Source of the DNA: Candidatus Omnitrophota bacterium
GTDB taxonomy: Bacteria; Omnitrophota; Gorgyraeia; Gygaellales; Profunditerraquicolaceae
Assembly: GCA_963805065.1 (NCBI GenBank)
Contig: CAWDSS010000010.1
Location: 211,696 to 275,695, forward strand
Direction of reading: 5' to 3'
Length of the DNA stretch: 64,000 nt
Both the position numbers and the translations under genes were made by a program. Position 1 is the stretch's first letter. Each line of letters opens with the position of its first letter. Of the stretch, positions 22,503 through 37,323 are shown piece by piece. The notes under the pieces were generated by a model. The model was not told where the DNA came from, did not search any database, and saw only the letters and a program-made list of their open reading frames with translations.

Positions 22503-22533
22503 GGTATTAAATCATATACGGATAGGGGTGACT

Positions 22534-22728: not shown

Positions 22729-22937
22729 AATATGCATATTTCATAGGTGGGTTGGTGGGATTTGGTTTGAGCTTTATAGTTCATAGGTTTTTTATTCAGT
22801 TTATCGTGCTCGCTGTATTTCTCATAATCCTTTATGTTATAGAAAAGAATAGCTGCGATGTAGCAGCATTAAAGAAATCCATTGAAGAGCATAATGAGTT
22901 AATAAAGAAAGACATAGAGGAGATGAAGAGAAAATGA
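22716..22937 (+). CDS. small membrane protein
   Basis: 73 aa with two hydrophobic helices and a charged C-terminal helix. It overlaps both neighbours. Confidence 0.45.
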   Translation: MQEMKYAYFIGGLVGFGLSFIVHRFFIQFIVLAVFLIILYVIEKNSCDVAALKKSIEEHNELIKKDIEEMKRK

Positions 22938-23722
22938 TGGTGAATCTTCGATCTGATTTTTTTCGAGTTTTAGAAGAGAAAAAGTGCTGGTGGGTTATTA
23001 AGTCATTAGAAAGTCAAAATCCTGATGTTAACAGGCAGTTAGAAGAATTTGATAGTGTTGCTTACGATATAGAAACATCTTCTTGCCATAATAAGAGGCT
23101 CTTACATACAAAATGTGAACATGTAATTAACCGAATTACACCAGGAAGAATTGATTTTGTAATTTCACGTGAACTACAGCCGATATCGCTTCCTGAACTT
23201 TATGAACATCAACCGGGAGTAAGGAATATCTTGGAGAGTGCTTATGCTGAGAATGTGTTTCGTGCTTCCGTTCTTTCTGAGATTAAAGTGTTTGATGAAT
23301 TAACTAAATTGAATATAAAGGAAATTAAATTTCTGGAAGAAGAGCCTAAGCGTAAAACACCAGATTTCAAGGTACTGCATAATGGTCAAAATATTTTTGT
23401 GGAAGTTAAATGTATTAACCCAGAGAAAGAAGAAGAACAAAGGATGATGTTTGGTCTTGTTGAATTTGTCGAGCTTAATTCAGGTTGGTGGGAGAAAGTG
23501 AAGAAGAAGCTTTCGGATGCCTTAAAAGATGCTAGGGCTAAATTTGAGGCTGTGAATGCGTATGCTGAAAATTGTAAAAGATGGGTATATGTTTCTATTA
23601 TTTGGTGGAGTGCCGATGCTAGTTCTCAACATGAAGCCCCCGAAAAGCTAATCACTGCTACGTTAATTCATGAGTTTGAAATGGAGTTTGGAGTCGAACT
23701 TAAATTTTTTAAAACATTTTAA
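22934..23722 (+). CDS. hypothetical protein with a possible PD-(D/E)xK nuclease core
   Basis: KTPDFKVLHNGQNIFVEVKC gives a D...E-x-K arrangement. ATGA overlap with the upstream gene. Confidence 0.4.
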   Translation: MMVNLRSDFFRVLEEKKCWWVIKSLESQNPDVNRQLEEFDSVAYDIETSSCHNKRLLHTKCEHVINRITPGRIDFVISRELQPISLPELYEHQPGVRNILESAYAENVFRASVLSEIKVFDELTKLNIKEIKFLEEEPKRKTPDFKVLHNGQNIFVEVKCINPEKEEEQRMMFGLVEFVELNSGWWEKVKKKLSDALKDARAKFEAVNAYAENCKRWVYVSIIWWSADASSQHEAPEKLITATLIHEFEMEFGVELKFFKTF

Positions 23723-23852
23723 GAAAATGATCACTCAGGGATGTAGGATTGTTCTGATGAAAAAATGAATGAAGATCAATTAATTAAATAAGTAATTAGG
23801 GCGCTGGGTAGATACAAAATGAATACGAGTAAATAACATAAGGATAAACGCT

Positions 23853-24170
23853 ATGAAACAAAATGCCTTTCTAATTAAAACCCTATTAGTCAGTTCAATA
23901 ATAATGCTACTCCTTTGTTTCATAACCAGACTCCCTCACGGTTATTACACATTACTTCGCCTCGTTATATTTATTACAAGTGTTATAATAGCCATAGCTG
24001 CTTTTAAGTTTAAGAAAAAGGCGTGGAGTATAACAGTGGGGTTGATTGCTTTTTTGTTTAATCCCATAGTCCCTGTTTATCTAAATAAATCAACTTGGAA
24101 ATTAATTGATTTAGCGGTTGTAGTTCTATTTATTATTTTATTACTTAAGATAAATAAAGACGGCATATGA
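23853..24170 (+). CDS. small three-TM membrane protein
   Basis: 105 aa, hydrophobic throughout. Overlaps the next gene. Confidence 0.5.
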   Translation: MKQNAFLIKTLLVSSIIMLLLCFITRLPHGYYTLLRLVIFITSVIIAIAAFKFKKKAWSITVGLIAFLFNPIVPVYLNKSTWKLIDLAVVVLFIILLLKINKDGI

Positions 24171-24799
24171 GCTGGCTAAATAGTTTTAAAAAAGATGAGC
24201 TTGAAATATGTAAGCTATCAAATCTTATTTTTAAAGCTTCCGCTTCATTGGTAGAAATAATAAAGCCTGACTTAAAAATGAAATTTGGAAAAGACGATAA
24301 AGAATATCATATGAAATATTTTATAGTCTTTAATGAATTTTTGTTCTTTTTTCTTCATATGGCAAATAGATGTACATTTAATCAATTTGGTAATGAAAAA
24401 AAGAATAGGTTAGAGGAAGAACTGCTTCCAATTACTGCTGTAACTTCAATTGCAACTTTATGTAAAGGATGGCCGCAGGAGTTAATAAAGAAAATTGAGA
24501 ATGAATTTTATCAGAATTTTTCTACCGCCGACCAAGAATATAGTGAGGCAAAAGAATGGTTTTTAACATCAGAAGAAAATAAGACTGGTGAAAAATTTCT
24601 TGAAAGTCTAATAAATAACACCCCAAGAAAAAAGAGCAATGGTGTTCTTAATCGTTTAATTGATAATATATCAGTCATTCTTTTTGAGAAAGAGATAGTG
24701 GATTATGTTTTTTCAATACGCATCATCGAGGGCGTAAATGAATTTTTCAACAAAGATTTTCAGGCCTTGGTTTTAAAATCGGTTAAGGAGTTAAAATAG
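24167..24799 (+). CDS. hypothetical protein
   Basis: 210-aa ORF, translationally coupled to its neighbours. No recognisable motif. Confidence 0.5.
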   Translation: MSWLNSFKKDELEICKLSNLIFKASASLVEIIKPDLKMKFGKDDKEYHMKYFIVFNEFLFFFLHMANRCTFNQFGNEKKNRLEEELLPITAVTSIATLCKGWPQELIKKIENEFYQNFSTADQEYSEAKEWFLTSEENKTGEKFLESLINNTPRKKSNGVLNRLIDNISVILFEKEIVDYVFSIRIIEGVNEFFNKDFQALVLKSVKELK

Positions 24800-24802
24800 T
24801 TT

Positions 24803-25309
24803 ATGTGGCCATTTGGTGATGAAATAAGCTTACCTCGGTTTAAAAAAGATATTCGGGGAAACTTAATATTTGAGTTAACAGAAGAAGAGGATCTGGCAGT
24901 ACAAAAACAGTTCGATTCTTTTAAAAGACCGGTAGAGGTATTCGCAGTTAGAAAAGAAGTAGTTGATGAGACAAATCGGGGGATAACAGCGCAAGCGTTA
25001 TTCCATTACGCTACGCTTCAGATAACATTGTCTGGATTTGATTCAAATAAGAATAATAGCAAAGAATTTATTGATAAAGCCATTGCTTCAATAGCGAAGG
25101 CGTACAGTTTTTGTCCCCTGCCTATTTTTATATACGATTTAGCTTGTTTTATAGAAATGAATGGAAGAACAAAAGAGGCAAAAGGCGTGTTTAAAAGTTT
25201 TTTGGATTTGCAAAATAATTTCAAACCAAGTCAGATGCAGGAAATATTTCTAAATACACTAGGAAGAGATATTGATGAAGCGATAAAGGATGCAAAAGTA
25301 AAGCTGTAA
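24803..25309 (+). CDS. hypothetical protein (helical, TPR-like C-terminal half)
   Basis: 168-aa ORF starting 4 nt after the previous stop. Confidence 0.45.
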   Translation: MWPFGDEISLPRFKKDIRGNLIFELTEEEDLAVQKQFDSFKRPVEVFAVRKEVVDETNRGITAQALFHYATLQITLSGFDSNKNNSKEFIDKAIASIAKAYSFCPLPIFIYDLACFIEMNGRTKEAKGVFKSFLDLQNNFKPSQMQEIFLNTLGRDIDEAIKDAKVKL

Positions 25310-25354
25310 AATTACAAGGAATTAGGCCAAAAATATTGAAAAAGAAGGGGGGCT

Positions 25355-25885
25355 ATGAAGAATATAATCAAGTTTTTAAAAAACTCGTCTTTAAGCATTT
25401 TAGGCTTTTCCGTAATCATTTTAATAATGCTTGTAGGGTTAATTGTAATTATTGGACTCGCAAAGATTTCTGAAAAAGTTATGCCATATTTAATGGCGAC
25501 TTCTGTATGGTGTTTGGTCATCTTTGTTCTTTTAATCCTCCCCTTGTCGTTGATTAAGCCCTTAAGAAGCATCTTGTCCATAATTTCTTATATTTTCTCT
25601 TTCGTTTTCGGAATTTTTACTTGGTCATTAGCCCTAGTATCGCTATGGTTCTATTGGGGGTTCTTATCAATATTCTTAATTTTGTTCTTACATGCGTTCG
25701 TTCCGGCTGCCATGATAGTGCTTTTATTTAAAGGGCAATTCTCTGTAATATTGACACTTCTAATCGGTTTAATCTTAACTTACGGTATGCGATTTTATAG
25801 CCTATGGTTAGGAAGCTTGCAGTATAAGAATCAAAAAAGCAAAACTGATATCATTGATATTAGCTCGTCATCTATAAACGAATAG
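25355..25885 (+). CDS. polytopic membrane protein
   Basis: 176 aa with about five hydrophobic helices. GGGGGC-type RBS region upstream. Confidence 0.5.
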   Translation: MKNIIKFLKNSSLSILGFSVIILIMLVGLIVIIGLAKISEKVMPYLMATSVWCLVIFVLLILPLSLIKPLRSILSIISYIFSFVFGIFTWSLALVSLWFYWGFLSIFLILFLHAFVPAAMIVLLFKGQFSVILTLLIGLILTYGMRFYSLWLGSLQYKNQKSKTDIIDISSSSINE

Positions 25886-26077
25886 ATATTAATGTTGTAG
25901 AAAGTTTATTGTGGAAAATGAATAAAACCCAGTTAACAGCTGCTTGTATTATTGCAATCTCGCTATCAATAATCTCTCAAAAAAACCTTGACGACAACAG
26001 AATTATAATGTATAGTTAAATTGTCTTAAGTTTTTGATAATTTGGTGAAGATTCAAACAGCCTTATTGGAAGAACCA

Positions 26078-26126
26078 AGGGGCTGGTTTTCGAATATCTC
26101 AAGTTCGGAAGCCAGCCCCTTTTTTT
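26078..26126 (+). terminator. rho-independent terminator of the cargo operon
   Basis: AGGGGCTGGTTTTCGAA...TTCGGAAGCCAGCCCCT followed by TTTTTT. The two non-Watson-Crick positions are U.G only on the + strand. Confidence 0.65.
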
Positions 26127-26129
26127 GTG

Positions 26130-26158
26130 TTGACAAAGGTAAAATCACGATGTATATT
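26130..26158 (+). promoter_or_regulatory. promoter of the replication-module leader
   Basis: TTGACA-17-TATATT. Confidence 0.5.
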
Positions 26159-26164
26159 TTAACT

Positions 26165-26287
26165 AGTAGTAAACAAATTAGTTTTATCCAGTCGCAGTAT
26201 ACTCGGTCTCGTAACTTAAGTGGATCAGAGCAAAACCGGGCTGGCATTTCCGAATTAAAAAGCGGAAGTGCCAGCCTTTTTGTTTTT
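26165..26287 (+). ncRNA. candidate ~120-nt leader or small RNA ending in an intrinsic terminator upstream of the replication genes
   Basis: The promoter at 26130-26158 is followed by the hairpin GGCTGGCATTTCCG...CGGAAGTGCCAGCC (26239-26276) plus TTTTTGTTTTT. The single wobble is U.G only on the + strand. Confidence 0.35.
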
Positions 26288-26312
26288 GGCCAAGTAGGAG
26301 ATTTATGAAAAC

Positions 26313-26546
26313 ATGAATAATAACACCTATTCAACAAACGACCTCTGGCTTTCAGCTTTCCTAAAGGCAAAAGGCTTAAAGATTATCCGCATTGAAGGCA
26401 ATAACCGAAGAGCTGTCTTTGTTTTTGAGGATACCCCAGATAGAAAAGACTTAATCGAAGAATTCTACAATAACGGCTCTATAGGCATAACTTTAATTAA
26501 AAACGCCATGGCAGATTTGAAATCTGCCATTTTTAACATGGAGTAA
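26313..26546 (+). CDS. small phage/plasmid-associated protein (DUF5659-like)
   Basis: TNDLWLSAFLKAKGLKIIRIEG..RRAVFVFED matches the pattern I recall for that family. Confidence 0.45.
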   Translation: MNNNTYSTNDLWLSAFLKAKGLKIIRIEGNNRRAVFVFEDTPDRKDLIEEFYNNGSIGITLIKNAMADLKSAIFNME

Positions 26547-26559
26547 ACAGGAGCAAAAA

Positions 26560-28590
26560 ATGCAAGATGAAAAGATTAATGAATTAGTCGAACAGTATCA
26601 TAAAGCTTTACCTGAACGAATCCGCACCTATCTTAACCAGCGCTGTCTTCCTAACGAAATCATCAATAAATTCAAGATCGGCTGGACCGACTCAGCAATC
26701 AGCATACCTATTTATAATAAAGATAATCAATATACCTTCTTCAAATTCCGCAAGGACCCTTTTTCGGATTCAAGTAAGCCAAAATACTTATTTACTAAAG
26801 GAGCTGAAGCTGACCTCTATGGCTGGGAGAATATAACTAATCCGGGGCCTTTCTTGGTAATCTGCGAAGGTGAATTTGACCGCTTAGTCCTTGAAGCTAG
26901 AGGTATTCCGGCAATAACCTCTACAGCTGGGGTAGGGACCTTTAAAGATGAATGGATTGTTTGTTTAAAAGATATCTCTAATCTCTATATCTGCTTTGAT
27001 AGGGATGAAACAAGCATGGCTGCTGCTCAAAATATGATTGAAAAATTGCCACATGCCAAATATGTTTCTTTATCAAAACTGCCTCAAGGCAAAAAAGATA
27101 TTACGGATTTCTTTGTTGCAGGAAATACTACAGCTGATTTTAACCGGCTCTTAAGAGAAGCTAAAAGCCTTGATGAATTCCATTTCTGCTTTAACGCGCT
27201 AGGCTCAAACGAAGTTAATTTTCTTCACCCCTCACAGGACTTCTTGGGCAATACTGCTTATTTTACTATTCCCTTTACCGAGTACACCAAAGACGCAAAA
27301 AATCCCTTTAAGCAGCTCTATTATGTACTAACCAGCGAAAGAAAGCTCTTGAAGCTAGAAGACAAAGCCGAATTCTACAATAAATACGGCAAAGTCATTA
27401 AAGAGCTGCCCTTTATAAGGAATCCCGAGCCTCGCTGGCAGGCTGAGGCAATAAAAGAATTTATCTTTAACGGCTATACTCCCACGCCTTATAGGGTTCA
27501 TGCTGAAATAGAACGCATCTATTACAAGTATTCTGAAATAAAAGACCCTGGCTGGTATTTAGTGCTTCCTCTTTGGGTTATCGGCACCTACCTTTACTAC
27601 CTTTTTGAAACTTACCCATATCTAGCTTTTGAAGGCTTAAAGAACACCGGAAAATCCAAAACTGCCCGGCTTACCACACGTATGTCCTTTAACGGCATCT
27701 TCTCGGTAAATGCCTCAGAAGCTACTCTCTACAGAGATATTGAGAACTTAAGGCCTACCTTTGGTATAGATGAGGCTGAGATCTTAAAAGACCCGGAAAA
27801 ATCCAAGTCTATCCGCGCAATCCTAAATGCCGGCCACTTTAAAGGCGCCTGCGTCTTAAGGCAGGAGAAAACCCCTAAGGGAGAGTTTTACACCCGTAAA
27901 TACAGCGTATACTCACCTAAACTTATTGCTAACACCAAAGGCCTGGAAGATACCCTGGAAAGTCGGACCATTAAGATAATCATGCTTCGGGCCAAGACCG
28001 AGAAAGGCCTTCTTCTTGACACGGAAACCTCTGAAAACTGGAACTATATTCGGCACCTCTGTTATACATTCGCCCTCTGCTTCTTTAAGGAAATAAGGAA
28101 TATTTACCTGAATGATCCTCAGGTAAAAATCGCTAACAATAGATTTAACGACCTCTGGTGTCCTCTCCTCTCAATAGCCAGGTTTATCTTTCTTAACCAC
28201 GATCAGGATAAATTTAAGCAGATTAAGGATTTTGCCCTTGAACAGATAGGCTTTTCCCAAGATGACAGCCTGGATGACCGCACAAGTGCCTTTCTTAAGG
28301 CTTTAAAAGACTTAACTTTAGCTACCGATACTGCCAGCTCAAGTGAGCAGATAAAGAAGGCAATGCAGCCCTATTTAGAGGATGAAGATTTCCTGGGAAT
28401 AACTGGCAAATGGATCGGCTGGAAGATGCGCTCTTTTGGCTTAAATAAAGATAAACATAGAATAAATAAAGGGTACCTCTATCATCTCTCTAAGAAGGAT
28501 ATAGATGACGTCTTAGGAAGGTATCTTGAGCCAGACTATCTACCTCAAGAAAAAACTACATCAACTACACAAACTACACCAACTGCATAG
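26560..28590 (+). CDS. Toprim-domain primase fused to a C-terminal P-loop-like replication domain
   Basis: Toprim motifs VICEGEFD and FDRDETS. Later GLKNTGKSKT is Walker A-like. 676 aa. Confidence 0.7.
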   Translation: MQDEKINELVEQYHKALPERIRTYLNQRCLPNEIINKFKIGWTDSAISIPIYNKDNQYTFFKFRKDPFSDSSKPKYLFTKGAEADLYGWENITNPGPFLVICEGEFDRLVLEARGIPAITSTAGVGTFKDEWIVCLKDISNLYICFDRDETSMAAAQNMIEKLPHAKYVSLSKLPQGKKDITDFFVAGNTTADFNRLLREAKSLDEFHFCFNALGSNEVNFLHPSQDFLGNTAYFTIPFTEYTKDAKNPFKQLYYVLTSERKLLKLEDKAEFYNKYGKVIKELPFIRNPEPRWQAEAIKEFIFNGYTPTPYRVHAEIERIYYKYSEIKDPGWYLVLPLWVIGTYLYYLFETYPYLAFEGLKNTGKSKTARLTTRMSFNGIFSVNASEATLYRDIENLRPTFGIDEAEILKDPEKSKSIRAILNAGHFKGACVLRQEKTPKGEFYTRKYSVYSPKLIANTKGLEDTLESRTIKIIMLRAKTEKGLLLDTETSENWNYIRHLCYTFALCFFKEIRNIYLNDPQVKIANNRFNDLWCPLLSIARFIFLNHDQDKFKQIKDFALEQIGFSQDDSLDDRTSAFLKALKDLTLATDTASSSEQIKKAMQPYLEDEDFLGITGKWIGWKMRSFGLNKDKHRINKGYLYHLSKKDIDDVLGRYLEPDYLPQEKTTSTTQTTPTA

Positions 28591-28672
28591 GTGTAGTTTT
28601 AGTGTAGTTTTTGTGCAGTTTTTAAAAGAGCTTTGTGCTTAAAGTGTAGTTAATGCAGTTTATGCAGTTTTT
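28563..28672. repeat. iteron cluster (candidate replication origin)
   Basis: About nine copies of GTGYAGTT/TGCAGTT. Three are inverted (AACTACAC, AACTACAC, AACTGCA) inside the end of the primase ORF and six are direct after its stop. An AT-rich stretch follows, with AAATTAATTC repeated twice around 28727-28750. Confidence 0.6.
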
Positions 28673-28831
28673 AAGGGAGGCTGACGGGGATTTAGAATAG
28701 CAAGACTCGAAAATGGTAAAATTAATTCACAAATTAATTCTCAAGGATTTAAAAGGTCAATGCACATTATCGCTGGTTACGGATGCTAATTATTTTGCGC
28801 ATTATTTTTTAACGATGTTCTTTTATTACAA

Positions 28832-28962
28832 ACGGTTAAGTTAATGGCTTGCGGTAAGCCTTCAGGCAGTTTTTCCAACAACCCTGCCGAAGGCTACCGC
28901 ATACCTTACCCAACAAAAAATCACCCAAAACCCTAAAGCCAAAAGAAAGGACACAGCCTTAT
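28832..28962. repeat. right copy of the 131-bp inverted repeat
   Basis: See 22319-22449. The outer end includes the AT of the ATG of ORF 28961. Confidence 0.85.
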
Positions 28963-29728
28963 GAGCAAAGGAAGAATTACCAGAAAAGAGCAGGAATATA
29001 GGATTAGCGCATTGCTTAGGTTTATCTTTATTTTTAGGTTTGCTACCAGAGAGCAGCTTTATGAGTTTAGTCAAAAGAGACTTGGATTAACCTATCCGCG
29101 CTGGCTAGTTGATTACTCCACGAAACGAAACTTTATTACCTCATACCAAGAGTCAAACTTAGGGCTTAAGGTCTATTATTTAACCCAGAGAGGCCAGGGT
29201 TTTATCCACAGATACGAGCCTTTTAGCAACCGCTATTATTTCAACCACAGGCATACGGGTTTTAATACCTTTGAGCACCAAAAAGCCGTAATTGAAAGCT
29301 ACTATATCCTTTATGAGCAATCCGCTATAAAAGAATGGGCTCCAGAGTGGGTTATCAGGAAAAAATTCAGGCTGAAATCCAAGATTCCTGATGCCTTAAT
29401 AGTCTTAAATTCTGGCATGAAAATAGCCCTTGAAGTTGAAACGTGGTATAAACAGCGGGGCGAGTGGAAAGTCGTAGTCTATAAATACAAGCATGAAATG
29501 CCCAGATATGATGCTGTTTTAATCATAGCTTATTCCAGCTCTAATTATGAAGGCATCCGGGATAGGCTATTCTATATCCTGCCAGAATTCTCTGTAAAAC
29601 TATTTATTATTACGGATTTGGCTTTACTTAAACAGGGCCAGTGCTTTTACCACGGCAAACTTAGGCAGTTAGAAGAAGCCCTTAGTCTAATTAGCCAGCA
29701 GTTTAGCGATCAGCAAAGCAAGGGTTAA
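28961..29728 (+). CDS. replication-relaxation family protein (wHTH plus PD-(D/E)xK-like C-terminus)
   Basis: N-terminal RFATREQLYEF...YYLTQRGQGF and C-terminal IPDALIV...IALEVETW. Confidence 0.5.
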   Translation: MSKGRITRKEQEYRISALLRFIFIFRFATREQLYEFSQKRLGLTYPRWLVDYSTKRNFITSYQESNLGLKVYYLTQRGQGFIHRYEPFSNRYYFNHRHTGFNTFEHQKAVIESYYILYEQSAIKEWAPEWVIRKKFRLKSKIPDALIVLNSGMKIALEVETWYKQRGEWKVVVYKYKHEMPRYDAVLIIAYSSSNYEGIRDRLFYILPEFSVKLFIITDLALLKQGQCFYHGKLRQLEEALSLISQQFSDQQSKG

Positions 29729-29754
29729 AATTGGGTATGTACAGAAATATTTCT

Positions 29755-29907
29755 ATGACTCAAAGGTTAGACAGGATTGGTGAATTATTAGCCAAAGGAG
29801 TATTTCTGTATTTGAAGAACGAGCAAGGAAAATCCGCAAAGGAAGAAAATAAAGAAAATGCTGAGGAAGAAAATAAATCAGCAAATTTCAAATCTAAAAT
29901 TGATTGA
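29755..29907 (+). CDS. possible small ORF (50 aa, or 56 aa from 29737), not in the ORF track
   Basis: Hand translation MTQRLDRIGELLAKGVFLYLKNEQGKSAKEENKENAEEENKSANFKSKID. No clear RBS. Confidence 0.2.
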   Translation: MTQRLDRIGELLAKGVFLYLKNEQGKSAKEENKENAEEENKSANFKSKID

Positions 29908-29931
29908 CAAATACATTGGAAGGTGTATATT
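29904..29931 (+). promoter_or_regulatory. promoter of the fic gene
   Basis: TTGACA-16-TATATT, followed by a tandem CTCATATAAT duplication and AAAGGAG before the ATG. Confidence 0.45.
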
Positions 29932-29990
29932 TGGTATATAATCTCATATAATCTCATATAGTTGAAATACGAGTTTAAAAAGGAGCTTTC

Positions 29991-31043
29991 ATGCCCAATG
30001 TCTTTAACCAAAGGTTAGAAAATCTTCCGCCAGAAATCTGGTCAAAAATCACCAAGATAGAAGAATTAAAAGGTCAATGGATTATAGGCGCGCGGTTAAG
30101 CCCCCAGGTATTAGGCCGGCTCAAGAGGTCGGTCTTGGTTACCTCAACCGGAGCTTCCACGCGCATTGAAGGCGCCAGGCTTTCCGATGAAGACATAGAA
30201 AAGCTTATGCGCGGGATTTCAATACACAAATTTGCCGACCGCGACAAGCAGGAAGTAAAAGGATACTATGAGTTGCTGCAGAATGTCTTTGATTCTTGGA
30301 AGCACATCCGTTTTTCCGAAAATACAGTCAAGCATTTCCATAAAGAGCTTCTAAAATACGTCCAAAAAGACAGGCTTCATCGGGGCGAGTATAAGAAAAC
30401 CGAGAATAAAGTCCATATGATTGATGCCGAAGGAAAATCTGTCGCCATTCTTTTTGATACCACGCCGGCATATCTTACGCCTAAAGAGATGCAGGAATTA
30501 GTTGAGGCAGCGCAAAATGCCTTTAAGGAAAATAAATATCCCCCTTTGTTGATCATAGGGAATTTCCTGGTTGAATTCTTGAAGATCCATCCTTTCCAAG
30601 ACGGCAATGGACGCATTTCGCGCATCCTTACGAATTTACTTTTATTGCAGGCCGGTTATCAGTATATGCCTTATGTCTCACACGAAAAATTAATAGAAGA
30701 CAACAAGGCCGACTACTATATGGCTTTAAGAAAAAGCCAGAAAACGTTAAAAACCAAACCCGATATTGTTCCTTGGCTGGATTTTTTTCTCTCAGTGGTT
30801 TATAAACAGTCACAATTGGCAGTTGAGCTATTGTCTAAAGAAAACATTGAAAAATTATTATCGCCGAAACAAATCGCGGTCTGGGAATATTTACAGACTG
30901 TTGCCGAGGCATCACCGAAAGATATCTCGAAGAATGCCAAAGTCGCCCTGCCAACGGTAGCCCAGGCCTTGGATAAGCTAATTCGCCTTAAAAAAGTTGA
31001 GCGCATCGGGCTTGGTAGGAGCACAAGATATAGGAAGATCTAA
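29991..31043 (+). CDS. fic: Fic family protein (AMPylase-type), class II with an internal inhibitory helix and a C-terminal wHTH
   Basis: Active site HPFQDGNGRISR. N-terminal STRIEG fits [ST]xxxE[GN]. Confidence 0.9.
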   Translation: MPNVFNQRLENLPPEIWSKITKIEELKGQWIIGARLSPQVLGRLKRSVLVTSTGASTRIEGARLSDEDIEKLMRGISIHKFADRDKQEVKGYYELLQNVFDSWKHIRFSENTVKHFHKELLKYVQKDRLHRGEYKKTENKVHMIDAEGKSVAILFDTTPAYLTPKEMQELVEAAQNAFKENKYPPLLIIGNFLVEFLKIHPFQDGNGRISRILTNLLLLQAGYQYMPYVSHEKLIEDNKADYYMALRKSQKTLKTKPDIVPWLDFFLSVVYKQSQLAVELLSKENIEKLLSPKQIAVWEYLQTVAEASPKDISKNAKVALPTVAQALDKLIRLKKVERIGLGRSTRYRKI

Positions 31044-31303
31044 GAAAAAATAATTTATGGGAACTACGACATTTTTTCTAAGGCATAATGATTTGACTAA
31101 GCCCTTAAACAAAATGGGCAAGAAAGAATTAGAAAAACTCAGTAATTTTTCACCTTATGTTAAGACGCCTAATTATGCTGGCTGGCAGGTACCATTAGAG
31201 CTTCATAATGGTAATGTATATCTCTTAGTATTTTAGAATGGCAGGTTAATGAAAATCGAAGAGGCGCCCAGGATTCTAAATAAAAAATATTACAGCAGAC
31301 ATC

Positions 31304-31576
31304 GTGGTAAAGAAGTCAACGAGTATGAATGGACTGTTTTTAAAAAATACGTCTTGGCAGAAATACAGAGGCTTGATAAAGAATTTAAGAAATCGTTACG
31401 AAAAAATTAAAGCCAATATTCGTATATACGATTATGTTGATCGGAAAATTTCTGTGTTGGCTGCAATGTATAAAAAGCGATTAATAGCTTATAGGGTTAT
31501 GGGCTACAAGATTAAGGATGATACATCTCCTGTTAGAGAATTAATAGACAACAAGCCATCGCTGGCCGTTTCTTGA
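31304..31576 (+). pseudogene. probable remnant of the C-terminus of an SF2 (SSL2/COG1061-like) helicase
   Basis: Only the last ~55 aa look helicase-like (ANIRIYDYVDRKISVLAAMYKKRLIAYRVMGYKI). The region upstream has overlapping short ORFs in other frames. Confidence 0.25.
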
Positions 31577-31630
31577 GTTATTTAAACCGGCTATTAGCTC
31601 TACAGAAAAGTTCGGGAATCTACCCCTATC

Positions 31631-31788
31631 GGGGAGCCAATCGTAAAAATGCCCATTGTTAAACAGTGGGCATTTTTATTTAGGGCTCCCCCTCGAGGAT
31701 CCCCGAAGTGCCGCAGGCACGAAGGGGATCTTAGTTCAGGGGAGCTTGATTTTCCAACCCTCTGTGATAGAATATATTGCAGAGGGTT
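31631..31788. repeat. 158-bp composite repeat, copy 1: tRNA-end remnant, bidirectional terminator, tRNA-end inverted copy in a hairpin, promoter plus palindrome
   Basis: Near-identical to 33891-34048, with about 8 differences by eye. Confidence 0.85.
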
Positions 31789-31825
31789 ATGTTTTGGAAT
31801 AAACTAATAATAAGGAAATAGGTCT

Positions 31826-32059
31826 ATGGAAATCATAACTGGTATTATTCTTGTGATATTAGGATGCCTTATAATTAAATTTGGCGATAGGCAATTCGGT
31901 AAATACGGCTCTATTTCAAAATGGTTATTTAACCCACCTTGGTATAATGATGGCTACATTAAATTTAGCAAAAAACTAACGAAGTGGGTATTAGGTTGTG
32001 TATTAATCTATTTGGGAATTGTTCTTATTTTCAATAAAATGTCTTGGATTGGTCTATAG
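31826..32059 (+). CDS. small two-TM membrane protein
   Basis: 77 aa. RBS AAGGAAATAGG. Follows repeat copy 1. Confidence 0.45.
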   Translation: MEIITGIILVILGCLIIKFGDRQFGKYGSISKWLFNPPWYNDGYIKFSKKLTKWVLGCVLIYLGIVLIFNKMSWIGL

Positions 32060-32125
32060 TAAGATAAATAGGTTCTAACTAATAACCAGTAGTTCTTGGT
32101 ATAATTTTTCTGCCCCTTCTGACAT

Positions 32126-32202
32126 CAGAAAAGTTCTAAACTCGTCCACGATGGGGAGCTTGTATTTCCAACCCTCTGTGATAGAATATATTGCAGAGGG
32201 TT
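32126..32202. repeat. short version of the repeat module (CAGAAAAGTT...GGGGAGC plus promoter and palindrome)
   Basis: CAGAAAAGTTCTAAACTCGTCCACGATGGGGAGC, then AACCCTCTGTGATAGAATATATTGCAGAGGGTT. Confidence 0.8.
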
Positions 32203-32249
32203 TTTATTGCTGGAAGCAGTGGAGAGGGAGAAAAAGATAGGAGGAGAAA

Positions 32250-32528
32250 ATGGCAATATGTCCTATGTGTAATAAAAAATTTTACCCTTGGGGTTATTGG
32301 TTTTTAAGAGGTATTACTTGGTGTTCTTGTGGAGCACAATTAAGATTGAAGAATTGGATTTTTTGGCAATTCGTTCCTCTTACCCTCGCCCTGGGAAGCA
32401 TATTCGTAATTGTTTGGTTATCCTCTGCGTTTAATGTTTCTTTAAAAATGCTCTCTTTATGTTGGTTATTATTTATTATTGGGTTGTATCTTATGACAGT
32501 TTTATTTGCTAAATTTATAAAATATTAA
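32250..32528 (+). CDS. small membrane protein with an N-terminal zinc-ribbon-like CxxC...CxC
   Basis: CPMCNKKF...CSCG followed by two TM helices. RBS AGGAGGAG. Confidence 0.5.
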   Translation: MAICPMCNKKFYPWGYWFLRGITWCSCGAQLRLKNWIFWQFVPLTLALGSIFVIVWLSSAFNVSLKMLSLCWLLFIIGLYLMTVLFAKFIKY

Positions 32529-32618
32529 AATACTATATGGTACCCAATCGCTCTTATTTTTGTTATGGCTATTTATTTTCTTGCACGCCCTCAAAATAAA
32601 GGAGCAGTTTAAGTAACA

Positions 32619-32815
32619 GCGCTAATTTAGCTAAATTAGCGCAAATTCCTTTGCAAGGTCATAAAAGAGATTAGCCTCCGCACTCATCAAAAAGTTATTA
32701 AACTCGTCCAATAGGGGGAGTAAATTCTTTTTTCAGGGCTGAACTTAAAACGTTACAGCCCTTTTTGTTTGCTTGTAATTTTATGATTTGTGATAGAATA
32801 TATTGAGGAGGGTTT
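32619..32815. repeat. repeat module, copy 3: 24-nt perfect palindrome, att-like remnant, terminator, degenerate promoter and palindrome
   Basis: GCGCTAATTTAGCTAAATTAGCGC lies at 32619-32642. 32643-32720 resembles 33817-33897. The TGATAGAATATATTG core lies at 32791-32805. Confidence 0.75.
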
Positions 32816-32919
32816 GTTACTATATTAACAATCTGTCACTAAAGAGCGGCGGCGGGGTCAAAATAGTTCTAATTTTTGCGATATTTACAGGTTAAGGACT
32901 AAATCTACGGGGTATAAAA

Positions 32920-33699
32920 ATGGCGAATCAAATTTCGCTCTCAGCAATATTGCTCGTTAAAAATGAAGAGGCAAAGATTGAGGAATGTCTTAAATCTATT
33001 TATGGATGGGCTGATGAGATTATTTTGGTAGATGATTTTAGTAGTGATAAAACAGTTAAAATTACTGAGCGATATACCGATAAAATCTTCCAGAGGAAAA
33101 TGGATAAGTATGGTACACAGGCTAACTGGGCATTTACTAAGACGAAAAATGACTGGATATTATCTTTGGATGGTCATGAAATTGTAACTGAGGAATTAAA
33201 AAAAGAGATAGCTATTATCTTACCTACAGATACCGAGCATGTCGCTTTTGATATACCCATACGAAATTACATCGGTAACTACTGGGTAAGATATGGCGGT
33301 TGGTATCCTGGTTCAAAGGTTAGACTTTTCAGAAAAGATAAATTCAAATATGAAGAAGCAGAAGTTCATCCACGTGTATTTATTAACGGGAAGTGTGGTC
33401 ATCTACACGGGGATATTATCCATAAAGGATACCTTGACATTGAAAACTTCGTGAGTACCGTAAATCGCCAGTCTACTTTAGAAGCAATCAAGTGGATAAA
33501 TACTGACAGAAAAATGACTTTGGTGCATATTATTTGGCGTACAGTTGACCGATTTTTTCGCAGATTCCTGCGTAAGAAAGCCTATAAGGATGGAATATAC
33601 GGGTTCGTTATTGCCTATTGCGACAGTCTCTATCAGGTTCTAAGTTATATCAAATATCTAGAGATGAAGAATAAGAGGAACACATCGACCTCAGAGTAA
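32920..33699 (+). CDS. family 2 glycosyltransferase
   Basis: SAILLVKNEE...EIILVDDFSSDKT is a typical GT2 N-terminus. DGHE may be the DxD-like site. Confidence 0.8.
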   Translation: MANQISLSAILLVKNEEAKIEECLKSIYGWADEIILVDDFSSDKTVKITERYTDKIFQRKMDKYGTQANWAFTKTKNDWILSLDGHEIVTEELKKEIAIILPTDTEHVAFDIPIRNYIGNYWVRYGGWYPGSKVRLFRKDKFKYEEAEVHPRVFINGKCGHLHGDIIHKGYLDIENFVSTVNRQSTLEAIKWINTDRKMTLVHIIWRTVDRFFRRFLRKKAYKDGIYGFVIAYCDSLYQVLSYIKYLEMKNKRNTSTSE

Positions 33700-33890
33700 A
33701 GTAACAATTTAAGTAATCACAGTAAATTCTTGATACAGCTTTTCCGCTTTCCCTGAAGCCAGAAAAGTTATAACCTCTTCCAATAGTACAAATTAGCGTA
33801 AATTTAGTTAAATTAGCGCAAATTCCTTTGAAAGGTCATAAAATAGAGTAGCTTCTGTGCTCAGTAAGAAGTTATTAAACTCGTCCAATA

Positions 33891-34048
33891 GGGGAGCCAA
33901 TCGTAAAAATGCCCATTGTTAAACAGTGGGCATTTTTATTTAGGGCTCCCCCTCGAGGATCCCCGAAGTGCCGAAGGCACGAAGGGGATCTTAGTTCAGG
34001 GGAGTTTGACTTCCTAACCCTCTGTGATAGAATATATTGCAGAGGGTT
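33891..34048. repeat. 158-bp composite repeat, copy 2
   Basis: See 31631-31788. Its promoter reads TTGACT-16-TAGAAT with TG at the extended -10 position. Confidence 0.85.
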
Positions 34049-34109
34049 TTTGTTACCATTTTGAGATGTAAGTGGTATAATTAGCGGAAAAGAAGGAGGT
34101 GAATCTAAG

Positions 34110-34451
34110 ATGAAAAAATTGTTAGCGGTTATTTTAATGAGCTTATTTTTGATTTCGGGGTTATTGCTAATGCCTTATGTCTTTGCTCAGAGTTCTCCCC
34201 AAACAATAAGTTCAGGAAATGCTCCAGCTGCGGGCCCAACAATCTCTACACCTATGGTGCAAAAAGCTGAACATCGTGAACGTAATGAACGACATCCGGC
34301 TATCCATGCAGCCATAAGGAAATTAAGGGCAGCCAAGGAAGATTTAGAGAAAGCAGCTCATGATTATGGTGGACATAGGAGCAAAGCTATTCAAGCGATT
34401 GACGTAGCTTTAAAAGAATTGGAAGAAGCATTGCGATTTGATAAGAAATAA
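34110..34451 (+). CDS. small secreted protein
   Basis: Signal peptide LLLMPYVFAQ and a helical His/Lys-rich mature part. RBS GAAGGAGG. Confidence 0.55.
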   Translation: MKKLLAVILMSLFLISGLLLMPYVFAQSSPQTISSGNAPAAGPTISTPMVQKAEHRERNERHPAIHAAIRKLRAAKEDLEKAAHDYGGHRSKAIQAIDVALKELEEALRFDKK

Positions 34452-34589
34452 TAAATCTGGTGACAACAATCACAGGGGCTGGACTTAACTGTTCAGCCCT
34501 TTTTGTTTTTTGCTCACTAAATTGCTTACAATTTTGGAATGGTAGTGGTATAATTAAAGATAATAGGATTATAGTAAAAGGAGACAATC

Positions 34590-34973
34590 ATGAAACTCAA
34601 TGGTATTCTTTTAGCAATAGCATTGGTAATGTTATTAGCCGGGCCATTACAAAGAACATATGCGAAGGATACAACTCAAGGAGGCAGCAATATAATTCAG
34701 GATAAAAATGATATTACAAAAGATGCAGCGGCTCTTCAAAATGATGTAATAGATCACAAGGAAGATAATGCAGATATTAAGCATGACCGCCAAGCGTTAA
34801 GAGATGCGATGCAGTCTAAAAATCAAGATAAAATACAGCGGGCAAGAGATAAATTACACAAGGACCTTATAAGTGCGGAGAAGGAAAAAAAGGCCAAAAC
34901 AAAAAAGCCCCGTGCTTTTAAATTCAAGAAACATCATGGCAACTCTGTACCTAAACCAGGGGTGTTAGATTAG
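34590..34973 (+). CDS. small secreted protein, Lys/Asp-rich
   Basis: Signal peptide LAGPLQRTYA. RBS AAAGGAG. Confidence 0.55.
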   Translation: MKLNGILLAIALVMLLAGPLQRTYAKDTTQGGSNIIQDKNDITKDAAALQNDVIDHKEDNADIKHDRQALRDAMQSKNQDKIQRARDKLHKDLISAEKEKKAKTKKPRAFKFKKHHGNSVPKPGVLD

Positions 34974-35010
34974 TTTAACCAAGAGGCGCCAAATAACAGG
35001 AGGGAAAAAA

Positions 35011-35388
35011 ATGAAGAAGCTATTCTGTTTGCTTGTTCTGGCGATTTTCGTTTGTGGATGCGCAGTATCAGAAAGTAGAATAAAGACTAATGAAAAAATA
35101 GCTCAACAACTCTGCATGGTGTATGCTAAAGCACTAAATTCATATAAGAAGAATAATCAACAGTTCCCTCATACTCTTCAACAGTTGAGTGACAAAGGCT
35201 ATCTTCTTGTCCATTCCGGACATAACTGGCTGATACTACATTCTAAGCCTGTACAAGGATATACTTATACTTATACTTATGTTGATAATAACCATTTTAT
35301 ATTAGAAGCTAAACCTGTGGTTAAAAGAGCAACAGGAAATGCTGAGTTCAAAATTAATGAAACCGGAGAACTAAAAGTTTCTTATTAG
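35011..35388 (+). CDS. lipoprotein
   Basis: Lipobox LAIFVCGC. RBS AGGAGGG. Confidence 0.55.
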   Translation: MKKLFCLLVLAIFVCGCAVSESRIKTNEKIAQQLCMVYAKALNSYKKNNQQFPHTLQQLSDKGYLLVHSGHNWLILHSKPVQGYTYTYTYVDNNHFILEAKPVVKRATGNAEFKINETGELKVSY

Positions 35389-35403
35389 CAGGGACAGCCC
35401 ATA

Positions 35404-37323
35404 TTACATAATCTGCGCTTCAAGCCTCTTTATCTCGCTATTGATTTCAGCGATTTCTTTGGTAATTTCTTTTAATCTGCGGCCGTAATTCCTGGCTGTT
35501 TCTTCATCACGAAAAATCTTCGGGTTAGATAAGGCGCGTGATTTTGCGTAACTTTCAAGTTCAAACTTTTCTTTCCTTTTTTCAAGCTTATTTATATCTT
35601 CTCGTAGTGACGCATTGTGGGATTTACGCTTCTTCTCTTCTTCTTTGTGTTTTTTCTCCTCTTCCTTTGCTTTTTGTTTAGCAATATCAACTTCTGATTT
35701 TATAATTTCTTGTTTGGGTTTATGCGCCGTAACTTCCTGGAAGGTATCCTTCTTTTCCAGATAGTAGTCAAATTCTCCGGGAAATTTACTGATTTTACCG
35801 TTCTTCACCTCAAAAACCACATTGGCAATAGAACGCACGAAATAAATATCGTGGCTGATAAATACAATCGTTCCCTCATAATTTGTAAGCGCTTTAACCA
35901 ATGCATCCACGGCATCCACATCCAAATGCGTAGTTGGCTCATCCAATAACAAACAATTAGGAGGATTAATCAAAAGCTTAGCCAGGATTAGCCTGCTCTT
36001 CTCTCCTCCTGAAAGCACTTTTACTTTTTTATCCGCATCGTCTCCCGTAAATAAAAATGCTCCCAGTATTGTCCTTAGGGTTTCCTCTGCCATATACCCA
36101 GGCGCGGCAGAATATGCCTCCTGCAACACTGTATTTTCGGGATTTAATACATCGGTGCGCGTCTGGGAGAAATAACCCGTCTGGACGTTATGCCCCACGA
36201 TGCGTTCGCCGCTATCAATATCAATTACTCCGGCTAAAATTTTTAAGAGGGTAGACTTACCCGCTCCGTTCTCTCCGGCTAAGACAGCTTTTTCTCCGGA
36301 TGCAATTTCAAAGTCAACGCCTTTGTATACCTGGATATCCTGATAGGATTTGGAAATCTGCAGAAGAGAAATCACTTTATAGCCGCTTCTTTGCGCCCGT
36401 GGAAAATGAAAATCCTTTATACTTTCCCGCGGATCAGGAGGGATAATAATTTCCTGCAATTTCTCCAGCTGTGTACGTTTGGCGCGCACAGATGCTGCTT
36501 TGTTTGGCTGCGCGTGGAACCTTGCCACAAAAGTCTCTAACTGCTGGCGTTTTTTCTCCTGCTCTTTAAACTGTTTTAACAGGTGCTTGCGTTTTTCTTC
36601 CTTTATCTGCTCATAATGCTTGAAATTTCCCCGCACCTTAAAAATTGAGCCGTTTTCAAGTACAAGAGTGTAATTAGTTACGTCATTTAAAAATGCTTTA
36701 TCGTGGGAAATCATAATAAAGGTACCGTGGAAACCGGCTAAATAATCTTTCAGCCAAAGCGCAGCATTCAAATCCAGGTAATTTGTAGGCTCATCTAAAA
36801 GCAACAAATCGTAATGATAGGTTAACAGTTTTGCCAGTAAAGTCCGCATCTGCCATCCGCCGCTCATTTGTACAATGGGACGGGAAAAATCCTTTTCTTT
36901 AAACCCTAAGCCCATTAAGATTTTCTTTGCTTTATGTTCCAGCTCAAAATATCCCAGAGATTCCAGGTTATGCAATATTTCTCCGTAACGTTTGGAGCCT
37001 GCGTTATTATTTTCTTCCAACTCTTCCTTATCTTTTAATAGCTGCATAATCTTTGCATCCCCTTCAGTCAATTCTGATAACACTGTGCGCTCGGATTGGA
37101 AACTTGCTTCCTGGGGAAGGTATCCGATACTTGTGTTTTTGTTTACCCGGATATCTCCTACAGAGGGTTCTATTTCTCCTAATATCAGCGAAAAAAGCGT
37201 GGTCTTTCCCGTGCCATTAGGCCCGATCAACCCGATTTTTTCTCCCTGATTGATATTAAGAGAGATATCCTCAAACAGGGTTTTCTTTCCGTAATTTTTC
37301 GATAGGTTATTTATGGTAATCAT
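35404..37323 (-). CDS. ABC-F family ATPase (two ABC domains, C-terminal coiled coil)
   Basis: Two Walker A motifs (GPNGTGKTT, GENGAGKST) and two signatures (MSGGWQMR, LSGGEKSR). No TM domain. Confidence 0.85.
   Translation of the reverse strand: MITINNLSKNYGKKTLFEDISLNINQGEKIGLIGPNGTGKTTLFSLILGEIEPSVGDIRVNKNTSIGYLPQEASFQSERTVLSELTEGDAKIMQLLKDKEELEENNNAGSKRYGEILHNLESLGYFELEHKAKKILMGLGFKEKDFSRPIVQMSGGWQMRTLLAKLLTYHYDLLLLDEPTNYLDLNAALWLKDYLAGFHGTFIMISHDKAFLNDVTNYTLVLENGSIFKVRGNFKHYEQIKEEKRKHLLKQFKEQEKKRQQLETFVARFHAQPNKAASVRAKRTQLEKLQEIIIPPDPRESIKDFHFPRAQRSGYKVISLLQISKSYQDIQVYKGVDFEIASGEKAVLAGENGAGKSTLLKILAGVIDIDSGERIVGHNVQTGYFSQTRTDVLNPENTVLQEAYSAAPGYMAEETLRTILGAFLFTGDDADKKVKVLSGGEKSRLILAKLLINPPNCLLLDEPTTHLDVDAVDALVKALTNYEGTIVFISHDIYFVRSIANVVFEVKNGKISKFPGEFDYYLEKKDTFQEVTAHKPKQEIIKSEVDIAKQKAKEEEKKHKEEEKKRKSHNASLREDINKLEKRKEKFELESYAKSRALSNPKIFRDEETARNYGRRLKEITKEIAEINSEIKRLEAQIM

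Follow-up and report, generated by a model that had tools for sequence, protein, structure and literature searches.

The locus described here lies within a 64-kb stretch of a Candidatus Omnitrophota assembly (GCA_963805065.1, contig CAWDSS010000010.1); we use "the window" for this whole stretch of analyzed DNA. A plus-strand block of about 20.2 to 35.4 kb is set among minus-strand core genes and holds a tRNA-Asn(GUU) gene, an 11-kb integrated element and, as its right-hand part, an array of small genes in which a 33-nt palindrome (AACCCTCTGTGATAGAATATATTGCAGAGGGTT) recurs ahead of the coding sequences. We describe this palindrome, the array and their relation to tRNA-Asn. Comparison loci fetched from other genomes and metagenomes carry L-numbers.

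Repeated palindrome and cassette-like array

Three exact copies of the palindrome lie on the plus strand at 31756-31788, 32170-32202 and 34016-34048, where none is expected (100 shuffles), in agreement with the sequence-only reading that had reported them. A fourth occurrence of the 17-nt core (TGTGATAGAATATATTG) is at 32789-32805, within a half copy (32789-32815) that keeps the loop and a variant right arm (AGGAGGGTT) and has lost the left arm; the earlier reading was right that this degenerate copy exists and wrong in starting it at 32785. ATG start codons at 31826, 32250, 32920 and 34110 follow the copies at distances of 38, 48, 105 and 62 nt, as had been claimed, and the tie to start codons holds more widely, since in 57 modules from all loci the next open reading frame (ORF) mostly begins 13 to 76 nt downstream. 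The long repeat that includes two of the copies is real and covers 164 nt (31625-31788 and 33885-34048, 96% identity) rather than 158 bp. A further repeat of about 100 nt near copies 3 and 4 was also found (32618-32717 and 33795-33894, 87% identity), as was the perfect 24-nt palindrome at 32619-32642. A motif (TAGAATATAGTTG) pointed out beside the recombinase promoter is present on the minus strand (22293-22305); it has more than three mismatches to the 17-nt core, a similarity short of significance, and we give it no weight.

Three features had gone unnoticed. Every palindrome was also scored as a terminator-like hairpin in the terminator scan, each window copy comes after a degenerate tRNA-Asn 3' end, and a motif of the form CAGAAAAGTT..AAACTCGTCCA..GGGGAG is present in five copies upstream of the palindromes (31600, 32123, 32685, 33757 and 33862). 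The unit is repeated, in our analysis, because it is linked to tRNA-Asn and to site-specific integration. The array comprises the following features, all on the plus strand:

31746-31788, plus strand: module 1, with a -35 box TTGATT (31746-31751) and a hairpin with an extended -10 in its loop (31756-31788)
31826-32059, plus strand: cassette gene 1, a 77-aa membrane protein with no family match
32083-32158, plus strand: full-length pseudo-tRNA-Asn (74 nt), with D-arm remnant TAGTTCTTGGTATA and 3' end GTCCACGATGGGGAG (profile match, E=8e-32)
32160-32202, plus strand: module 2, with a weak -35 box TTGTAT and a predicted terminator-promoter hairpin (32170-32202)
32250-32528, plus strand: cassette gene 2, a 92-aa zinc-ribbon membrane protein, an ORFan
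32563-32720, plus strand: composite junction of a gene 3'-end remnant (to 32616), AAATTAGCGY repeats (32619-32648) and a pseudo-tRNA 3' end (32685-32720)
32735-32767 and 32789-32815, plus strand: a separate predicted terminator hairpin, then a half module of promoter core and right arm (same in L010 and in L013, 2919-2950)
32920-33699, plus strand: cassette gene 3, a family-2 glycosyltransferase of 259 aa
33757-33897, plus strand: two more pseudo-tRNA 3' ends (33757-33792 and 33862-33897) and a second AAATTAGCGY region
34006-34048, plus strand: module 4, with a -35 box TTGACT (34006-34011), a hairpin (34016-34048) and a second promoter-like site (34053-34081)
34110-35388, plus strand: three small secreted-protein genes (113, 127 and 125 aa) with their own predicted terminator (34474-34501) and promoter (34525-34554)

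The repeat-gene-repeat layout seen by the earlier reading is thus a true cassette-like array, and it recurs in other genomes. Its full-length pseudo-tRNA aligns with tRNA-Asn and with the pseudo-tRNAs of L001, L013, L008 and L009. At gathering thresholds, Rfam returned only the group I intron and two tRNAs from the window, and a permissive search of 31.4-34.6 kb gave chance matches only (Thr_leader, snoU18), with no tRNA score for the pseudo-tRNAs at E up to 5. The idea that the pseudo-tRNA serves as a tRNA-like RNA-processing signal was rejected, as a conserved cloverleaf is absent. No homologue of the window's cassette proteins was found in any fetched locus, and a homology search with cassette gene 2 against 5.8 billion proteins returned itself as the sole match. 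Exact-protein matches to the cassette genes came only from short contigs of the same sample, which end exactly at the repeats (L016, L137); two of these searches gave no match. No pseudo-tRNA lies beyond the secreted-protein genes, and these are therefore probably the original flank.

The composite junctions have features of their own. The region of the 24-nt palindrome is made up of three direct repeats of about 10 nt (AAATTAGCGY), and the homologous junctions of L013 and L059 retain the direct repeats and not the perfect palindrome, which we therefore dismiss as a conserved element and regard as a local variant of the repeats. AAATTAGCGY repeats occupy the arm upstream of a pseudo-tRNA end in the window (32619-32648, 33791-33822), in L013 (3278-3310) and in L059, and to judge from their sequence they resemble arm-type or excisionase binding sites. 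A second putative terminator hairpin (GGGCTGnACTTAAnnGTTnCAGCCC), with a T-run after it, is conserved in sequence across species (window 32735-32767 and 34474-34501; L006, L010). Outside the block, tandem minus-strand ORFs of similar size (446-516 aa) at 48716-61900 include at least four B12-binding radical SAM paralogues and one DUF2079 protein.

The palindrome as a candidate tRNA-Asn terminator

The setting in which the palindrome occurs elsewhere links it to tRNA-Asn. A scan with the core pattern, with one genome per species, gave 15 loci, almost all from metagenome-assembled genomes (MAGs) of Candidatus Omnitrophota. Two of these, L003 and L011, carry the exact palindrome 11 nt past an intact tRNA-Asn (...GGGGGAG TTTGATTTCCT AACCCTCTG...); their tRNAs differ from each other and their palindromes are identical. 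The exact palindrome also lies 11 nt beyond an intact tRNA-Asn in L051 and L088. Among the 120 loci obtained from a metagenome scan with the tRNA-Asn 3' half, variants of the palindrome directly follow the tRNA in L084, L053, L099, L130, L132, L113, L108, L048 and L066. In other loci and in the window, a degenerate tRNA-Asn occupies that slot, and the cleanest copies align with the real tRNA in register over the full 74 nt.

The arms of the palindrome vary in a manner expected of an RNA helix. We aligned 49 distinct variants, drawn from many metagenomic genomes, over a 14-bp helix made up of the 9-nt arms and five further loop-ward pairs. This helix is 97.2% paired across the variants, and control helices with partners slid by 1 to 3 columns are only 36-58% paired. 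Changes on both sides occur in 9 of the 14 pairs, and 36 compensatory cells were observed against 4.6 in shuffled alignments (36 was reached in none of 500 shuffles), although the variants are related sequences, and such shuffle statistics, like the Fisher test given below, overstate their independence. In the commonest form, two helix positions are U-G and G-U, for which the opposite strand would have A-C mismatches. Predicted folding energies are -19.9 kcal/mol for the sense RNA (z -6.2) and -14.6 kcal/mol for the antisense. A T-run follows nearly all copies (TTTTTG, TTTTAT or similar; TTATGTTTT at window copy 1). Two arm sequences may be found in one genome, namely CCCTCTG with CCCACCG in L002 and CCCTCTG with CTCCTTG in L013.

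The palindrome thus has the sequence hallmarks of an intrinsic terminator, a stable G+C-rich sense-strand hairpin with a U-tract right after the stem. Because the arms covary, the G-U pairs are possible on the sense strand only and a U-tract follows, we infer terminator activity rather than an operator. RNA made from the plus strand would form a 14-bp stem (9-nt arms and five pairs, two of them G-U), a 5-nt loop and a U-tract, and transcripts coming from upstream would end at this hairpin.

A predicted promoter within the hairpin

The earlier reading had also placed a promoter in the loop of each copy, and this proposal appears plausible. Its boxes are as described at copies 4 and 1, where the promoter scan found TTGACT-16-TAGAAT with TG (34006-34033, 10 of 12 consensus matches) and TTGATT-16-TAGAAT with TG (31746-31773); at copy 2 the description fails for the -35 box, which is only TTGTAT. 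These sequences have the makeup of sigma-70 extended -10 promoters, with hexamers 16-18 nt apart and TG one base before the -10. The number of promoter-like sites in the region equals the shuffle expectation (15 vs 15.1), and a consensus match by itself therefore proves nothing.

The variants were also compared with one another. The loop (TGATAGAATATATTG) is invariant in most of them, even where the arms have changed. A -35 box TTGA[CT] lies 16-17 nt upstream in 22 of 35 variants with the loop -10, compared with 4 of 22 without it (Fisher p=0.001); TGnTAAAAT is present in three of the four that have the box without a loop -10. In L014, loss of the TG goes with a hexamer improved to TATAAT. From this co-occurrence of the loop -10 with the TTGAC -35, we infer that a sigma-70-type promoter is nested in the putative terminator. 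Some copies have one half of the arrangement. The promoter is seen without the hairpin at window 32789, in L010 and in L013 (2919), which keep TGTGrTAGAAT and the right arm and have lost the left arm. The hairpin is seen without the promoter, and with an unrelated loop that has neither -10 nor -35, in L008 (521-640), L013 (5989-6115 and 6828-6951) and L050 (4987-5111). Since hairpin-only and promoter-only copies exist, the two functions are separable, and both predicted functions appear to be under selection.

In such a nested arrangement, the -35 TTGACT would stand just ahead of the stem and the extended -10 (TGaTAGAAT) in the upper 5' stem half and loop. A start 6-8 nt past TAGAAT would fall within the descending arm, so that the new mRNA would lack the left arm, form no hairpin and not terminate itself, and it would run into the gene 40-100 nt downstream. 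Promoters of the tRNA (TTGACT..TAAAAT) and of the recombinase (TTGACT-17-TGcTATAAT) are legible in the window, and consensus sigma-70 signals are therefore in use in this genome. A second, conserved promoter-like unit (TTACnATTTTGnnATGG...TGGTATAAT) lies behind some modules (window 34053-34081 and 34525-34554; L002, about 965-1000; L013; L053). In many modules, TA(G/A)AAT is found about 17 nt past the TTGCAG of the descending arm and could be a tandem second promoter.

An integrated island and an integration hot spot at tRNA-Asn

Upstream of the array, the tRNA-Asn gene and the 11-kb element comprise the following features:

20271-20600, plus strand: tRNA-Asn(GUU) gene, the anchor of the region (exon 1, 20271-20305; exon 2, 20560-20597; encoded CCA, 20598-20600)
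20306-20559, plus strand: group I intron in tRNA-Asn (Rfam RF00028 match, 20295-20552)
20592-20602, plus strand: attL core GGGGAGCCAAT, where the tRNA 3' end meets the 11-kb island; it recurs at 31631-31641 and 33891-33901
20553-22244, minus strand: large serine recombinase of 563 aa (Pfam Resolvase, Recombinase and Zn_ribbon_recom; PF00239, PF07508, PF13408)
20601-31630, plus strand: integrated element with the recombinase, an HTH_17 excisionase-like protein, DUF6804, DUF5659, a Toprim primase, Fic and unknown ORFs (Pfam)
31600-31641, plus strand: attR, an arm mimicking the tRNA 3' end (CAGAAAAGTTCGGGAATCTACCCCTATC) and then the core GGGGAGCCAAT; a member of the five-copy motif, assigned from attP reconstruction
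31631-31745, second copy 33891-34005, plus strand: native tRNA-Asn trailer moved away by the island (CCA end, hairpins and inverted tRNA fragment)

The window tRNA-Asn is not called by ARAGORN, and its exons match the intronless tRNA-Asn genes that ARAGORN calls in L003 and L011. The intron has 254 nt and lies between anticodon positions 35 and 36, a site described as typical of Patescibacteria and rare elsewhere (PMC13011429); group I introns are also present in many metagenomic tRNA-Asn loci (L014, L024, L034, L046, L070 and others).

The 11-kb element can be delimited at both ends. In L024 the site is empty; tRNA-Asn leads straight into CCAATCGTAAAAATGCCC..., the sequence to the right of window 31641, and L024 matches the predicted excision product of the window island. 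From this empty site together with attL and attR, we conclude that the element integrated within GGGGAGCCAAT at the tRNA CCA end. The 164-nt unit is the displaced native tRNA-Asn trailer. It has two hairpins, a predicted terminator at about 31649-31677 and another at 31698-31730, and an exact inverted match of 16 nt to the 3' end of the tRNA (31684-31699), which occurs again at 33944 in the second trailer copy. This arrangement sits directly after tRNA-Asn in L024 and many other loci. The attR element-side arm (31600-31630) and the pseudo-tRNA ends of the cassette junctions form one family, and the arm has homologous remnants in L062, L082 and L092. In the reconstructed attP, GTTCGG and CCGAAC lie about 50 bp apart around GGGGAGCC, as read by eye.

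The tRNA-Asn gene is an integration hot spot. In 26 of the 120 metagenomic tRNA-Asn loci, the tRNA 3' end adjoins a large serine recombinase gene that runs on the other strand, and a close relative of the window element (94% aa and 86% DNA identity) lies at the same tRNA in L107. Direct repeats of the tRNA end were sought downstream of recombinase genes in the metagenomic loci, with a clear case in L131 only. Neither the palindrome pattern nor any relative of the recombinase turned up in viral contigs. As an island in a tRNA gene (tDNA island), the 11-kb element has an intact tRNA at attL, a repeated 11-nt core, a recombinase by attL and an empty site; it departs from the usual type in that its displaced fragment is identical over only 11 nt and its integrase is a serine rather than a tyrosine recombinase. 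The small cassettes at 31.7-34.0 kb have pseudo-tRNA ends at their junctions, no integrase inside the units and degenerate tRNA copies.

Several further observations concern this hot spot. The final 45 nt of the recombinase ORF overlap the tRNA 3' exon on the opposite strand, and its last 15 or so residues are encoded by host DNA at attL (window 20553-20600); in the reconstructed excised form, the tail would change to give 580 instead of 563 aa. Overlaps of 35-41 nt with the tRNA are seen in 15 other loci (L023, L049, L055, L127, L129 and others), including those of recombinases only 23-29% identical. A 125-nt inverted repeat, 98% complementary (22319-22443 and 28838-28962), flanks a 6.4-kb island core that extends from HTH_17 to the primase and could be invertible. 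An inverted degenerate tRNA-Asn 3' half right after the trailer terminator is common to many loci, including the window (31684-31699, 33944-33959), and two convergent tRNA-Asn genes in L042 (5228-5343) have one bidirectional terminator in common. In 33 of 34 other loci, ABCF is the gene just before tRNA-Asn and shares its strand; in the window, ABCF (35404-37323) is convergent, 15 kb from the tRNA, and adjoins the distal end of the array. The ORF at window 19459-19950 has a weak homologue downstream of the L084 array. The whole block of tRNA, island and array (20200-35400) seems to be inverted, with a similar situation in L062 and L018. Finally, a conserved non-coding unit of about 290 nt separates tRNA-Asn from a near-perfect duplicate of its last 33 nt in L063 (7749-8040), L012 (3850-3960) and L014 (5100-5300). 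With a terminator, an inverted pseudo-tRNA and several hairpins (e.g., CCATAGGGGAACCATCTGGGTTCCCCTATGG), it resembles a miniature integrative element or what remains of a larger one.

Arrays in other genomes and their assembly

The order of module, ORF and module, all co-oriented, is found in at least 10 other loci (L013, L002, L012, L014, L050, L063, L082, L084, L053 and L040), and the arrays are usually anchored at tRNA-Asn, with several that begin at a real tRNA-Asn gene. By the module profile, L013 has five modules on one strand and two on the other, L002 has six, L012 five, L014 four, L050 five (starting at the tRNA) and L063 and L082 three each. The cassettes mostly encode unknown membrane or secreted proteins, and also a ZIP transporter, a cupin, a GDSL hydrolase and a glycosyltransferase. 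Only two cassettes are common to different loci. The homology between L015 and L125 begins exactly at GGGGAG|TTGATTT and stops at the stop codon, and that between L053 and L063 takes in the ribosome-binding site, the gene, the full pseudo-tRNA, the CCA end and the terminator.

On balance, we think that the 33-nt palindrome is an intrinsic terminator that natively follows tRNA-Asn(GUU) in this Omnitrophota lineage and has a promoter nested within it, and that its copies are the seams of segments accumulated at the tRNA. In this scheme, DNA would have inserted repeatedly at the tRNA-Asn 3' end, presumably by site-specific recombination. Each seam would keep a degenerate tRNA-Asn 3' end, the element-side att arm, which ends in GGGGAG and would be followed by TTTGAyTTCC and then the hairpin, giving an array of terminator/promoter, gene, pseudo-tRNA and terminator/promoter. 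The 11-kb element at 20.6-31.6 kb would be the latest arrival.

Besides the relatedness of the variants mentioned above, a number of observations weigh against this account. The palindrome is identical in at least 12 loci although the adjacent ABCF genes are only about 70% identical in DNA, and in L003 and L011 it is more conserved than the tRNA itself; a terminator and a promoter do not usually require conservation this strong. The pseudo-tRNA 3' end (CCAGTTGCGAAACTCGTCCAAnAGGGGAG) is conserved across species in its degenerate form, and since decaying scars would not stay conserved, this counts against seams that are mere scars. A serine integrase destroys attB on integrating, so one enzyme alone cannot build the array serially, and no recombinase gene was found in the fetched 8 kb around arrays L002, L008, L012, L013 and L014. 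In addition, the MAG JAPLLR01 has copies on three contigs, one of which is not near tRNA-Asn. The small cassettes may have been assembled by several recombinases whose sites are offset, by a tyrosine recombinase from another locus, or by RecA-dependent Campbell-type insertion via 80-160 nt of identity; the 164-nt direct repeats in the window and those of at least 47 nt in L131 fit the last of these.

Alternative explanations

The conservation of the junctions raises the question of whether the module, as pseudo-tRNA end plus hairpin, is itself a recombination site in a dedicated, integron-like cassette platform. A trans-acting recombinase, or RecA via the 80-160-nt identity, would excise a circle of one gene and one module, which would re-insert at tRNA-Asn or at another module, possibly in another species, so that each cassette brings its own terminator and promoter. 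In support of such a platform, single-gene units fit tightly between modules, unrelated or ORFan cassette genes accompany a module that is near-identical across species, the degenerate form of the pseudo-tRNA arm is itself conserved, and the homology of a shared cassette begins exactly at GGGGAG|TTGA. Direct repeats also surround whole blocks, with 164 nt around the 2.26-kb window block and at least 47 nt around the 2.1-kb L131 block. By eye, the distance between GGGGAG and the distal GTTnCGA is 4-5 bp greater in the pseudo-tRNA than in the real tRNA, and attP and attB half-sites of serine integrases differ by such a shift. Because the cross-species identity of the palindrome and the conserved pseudo-tRNA arm exceed what plain scars would show, active recombination sites retain some probability. 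No circular form, presence/absence polymorphism or dedicated recombinase was found, however; the only two cassettes common to loci could both be orthologous by descent, and the mosaic junctions, with gene-end remnants, extra hairpins and serial pseudo-tRNAs, look like scars rather than clean sites. We regard such a platform as unlikely, and hold the same doubt about its specific form, in which a tRNA-Asn-anchored Omnitrophota system would use the unit of about 80 nt (pseudo-tRNA arm, GGGGAG, TTTGACTTCC and hairpin) as a recombination site in trans, for example with large serine recombinases.

The other explanations are much less probable. The sequence-only reading likened the arms around the -10 to the operator of a dimeric repressor; on this view, the 9-nt arms would be half-sites, and one regulator, perhaps the helix-turn-helix (HTH) protein of the island, would switch the cassettes jointly. 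The perfect dyad symmetry about a promoter-like core, the very well conserved arm sequence and the HTH_17 protein encoded by the island would suit an operator, but the arms change in compensating pairs that hold the pairing, and the helix reaches into the "loop" through G-U pairs, which are meaningless in duplex DNA. Unlike arms coexist within L002 and within L013, which argues against one operator-binding protein, and the half-site centers are 24 bp apart, not whole helical turns. Modules are also present in loci that lack the island and its HTH protein (L014, L088), and HTH_17 proteins beside a recombinase gene are usually excisionase-like. Both the operator and its proposed regulator therefore find little favor with us. 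We see a similarly small chance that the palindrome is a dispersed, self-spreading intergenic repeat of the repetitive extragenic palindrome (REP) or miniature inverted-repeat transposable element (MITE) kind, with no link to tRNA-Asn integration. It is a short intergenic palindrome, one of the three JAPLLR01 contigs with copies (L010) has them away from tRNA-Asn, and an L007 copy lies 2.2 kb from the tRNA without a pseudo-tRNA. A genome-wide repeat, which the earlier reading had named as the finding that would overturn it, does not agree with the clustering of all four window copies within 2.4 kb (31.7-34.1 kb). Elsewhere the copies cluster downstream of tRNA-Asn, co-oriented with tRNA and genes, the unit is in register with a genuine tRNA gene end when the two are aligned, and apart from the hairpin we saw neither terminal inverted repeats nor target duplications. 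Most improbable, in our view, is local tandem duplication of tRNA-Asn and its flank, after which the surplus tRNAs would have decayed and genes would have entered by some other route. Full-length pseudo-tRNAs, the 164-nt repeats at 96% identity and the convergent tRNA-Asn pair in L042 would agree with duplication, but the pseudo-tRNAs of L001 are far closer to those of other species than to the tRNA of their own genome, and the genes between copies are unrelated to one another.

Implications

The reading that fits best, and one we hold to be probable, is a tRNA-seeded genomic island with unusually conserved junctions that give each cassette its own terminator and promoter. With the same predicted terminator-with-promoter at every seam, acquired genes would be insulated from their neighbors and expressed singly, and the 45-60-nt module is predicted to be a natural portable insulator part. 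Little is understood of gene gain in Omnitrophota, which are uncultivated and often ultra-small; the present locus is a concrete hot spot of this process. A tRNA-Asn followed by the palindrome also offers a simple marker for variable regions in Omnitrophota metagenomes. If the modules were active recombination sites, they would constitute a second, independent route to cassette arrays besides integrons, and a true platform of this kind would be integron-like, although its chemistry would differ and its logic of expression would be reversed.

Comparison with known systems

The array shares with integron arrays its co-oriented single-gene cassettes, its imperfect-palindrome sites and a largely ORFan content that differs between genomes. 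It differs in that each cassette has its own predicted promoter and terminator, whereas integron cassettes are promoterless, and in being anchored at a tRNA gene. We found no IntI, attI or Pc. The sole recombinase among the ORFs scanned at 18.9-37.9 kb (all ORFs of at least 110 aa and the listed small cassette and island ORFs) is of the serine type, and the flanks fetched for five other arrays yielded no IntI-type recombinase. The junctions consist of a pseudo-tRNA and a 9-15-9 hairpin, and attC architecture was not seen, with no GTTRRRY/RYYYAAC pair on reading and no pattern search run. The doubt that the earlier reading had voiced about an integron was thus well placed.

Composite islands of the staphylococcal cassette chromosome (SCC) lie at the 3' end of staphylococcal rlmH and are moved by the large serine recombinases CcrAB and CcrC. 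The present locus resembles them in having serine recombinases at the 3' end of a conserved gene, full and recombinase-less elements in tandem and a repeated site at the junctions. Unlike SCC, the target here is a tRNA gene, the junction is 80-160 nt long with a predicted transcriptional function and the units are much smaller. The palindromes also recall REP sequences, which are short palindromes between genes, and the small gene modules bounded by recombinase sites recall the pdif modules of Acinetobacter plasmids. In contrast to REP sequences and bacterial interspersed mosaic elements (BIMEs), copies here are few and clustered, four within 2.4 kb of the 64-kb window, rather than dispersed by the hundreds, and their 9-15-9 geometry differs from the 11-6-11 of dif.

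In its components, the module matches known terminators and extended -10 promoters, with a G+C-rich stem and U-tract and with TTGACT, a 16-nt spacer and TGnTAGAAT. What sets it apart is that both are nested in one 45-nt element copied as a unit, with the -10 in the loop and the predicted start in the descending arm. We know of no described family with such nesting, a statement made without a literature search. Term searches in the text of two recent Omnitrophota preprints on hypervariable loci returned no passage on this tRNA-Asn array.

The closest described pattern is a tRNA-seeded island built by serial integration. The tycheposon islands of Prochlorococcus arise by serial integration at tRNA genes, with partial tRNAs strewn through the island; they carry an integrase, an excisionase and a primase, a minority have a large serine recombinase, and inversions are associated with them (bioRxiv 10.1101/2020.12.28.424599). 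Related structures are the tDNA islands, in the sense of Islander (PMC4383910). The locus differs from both in that the recombinases at the site are serine and not tyrosine recombinases, the repeated unit is a partial tRNA together with the tRNA terminator and its predicted loop promoter, this unit is nearly invariant across species and the intervening units are mostly single genes. It agrees with tycheposon and tDNA islands in its tRNA anchor, in newer elements that displace older ones outward and in partial tRNAs at the old junctions, and with tycheposon islands also in the presence of integrase, excisionase and primase, in its inversions and in the small, streamlined genome of its host.

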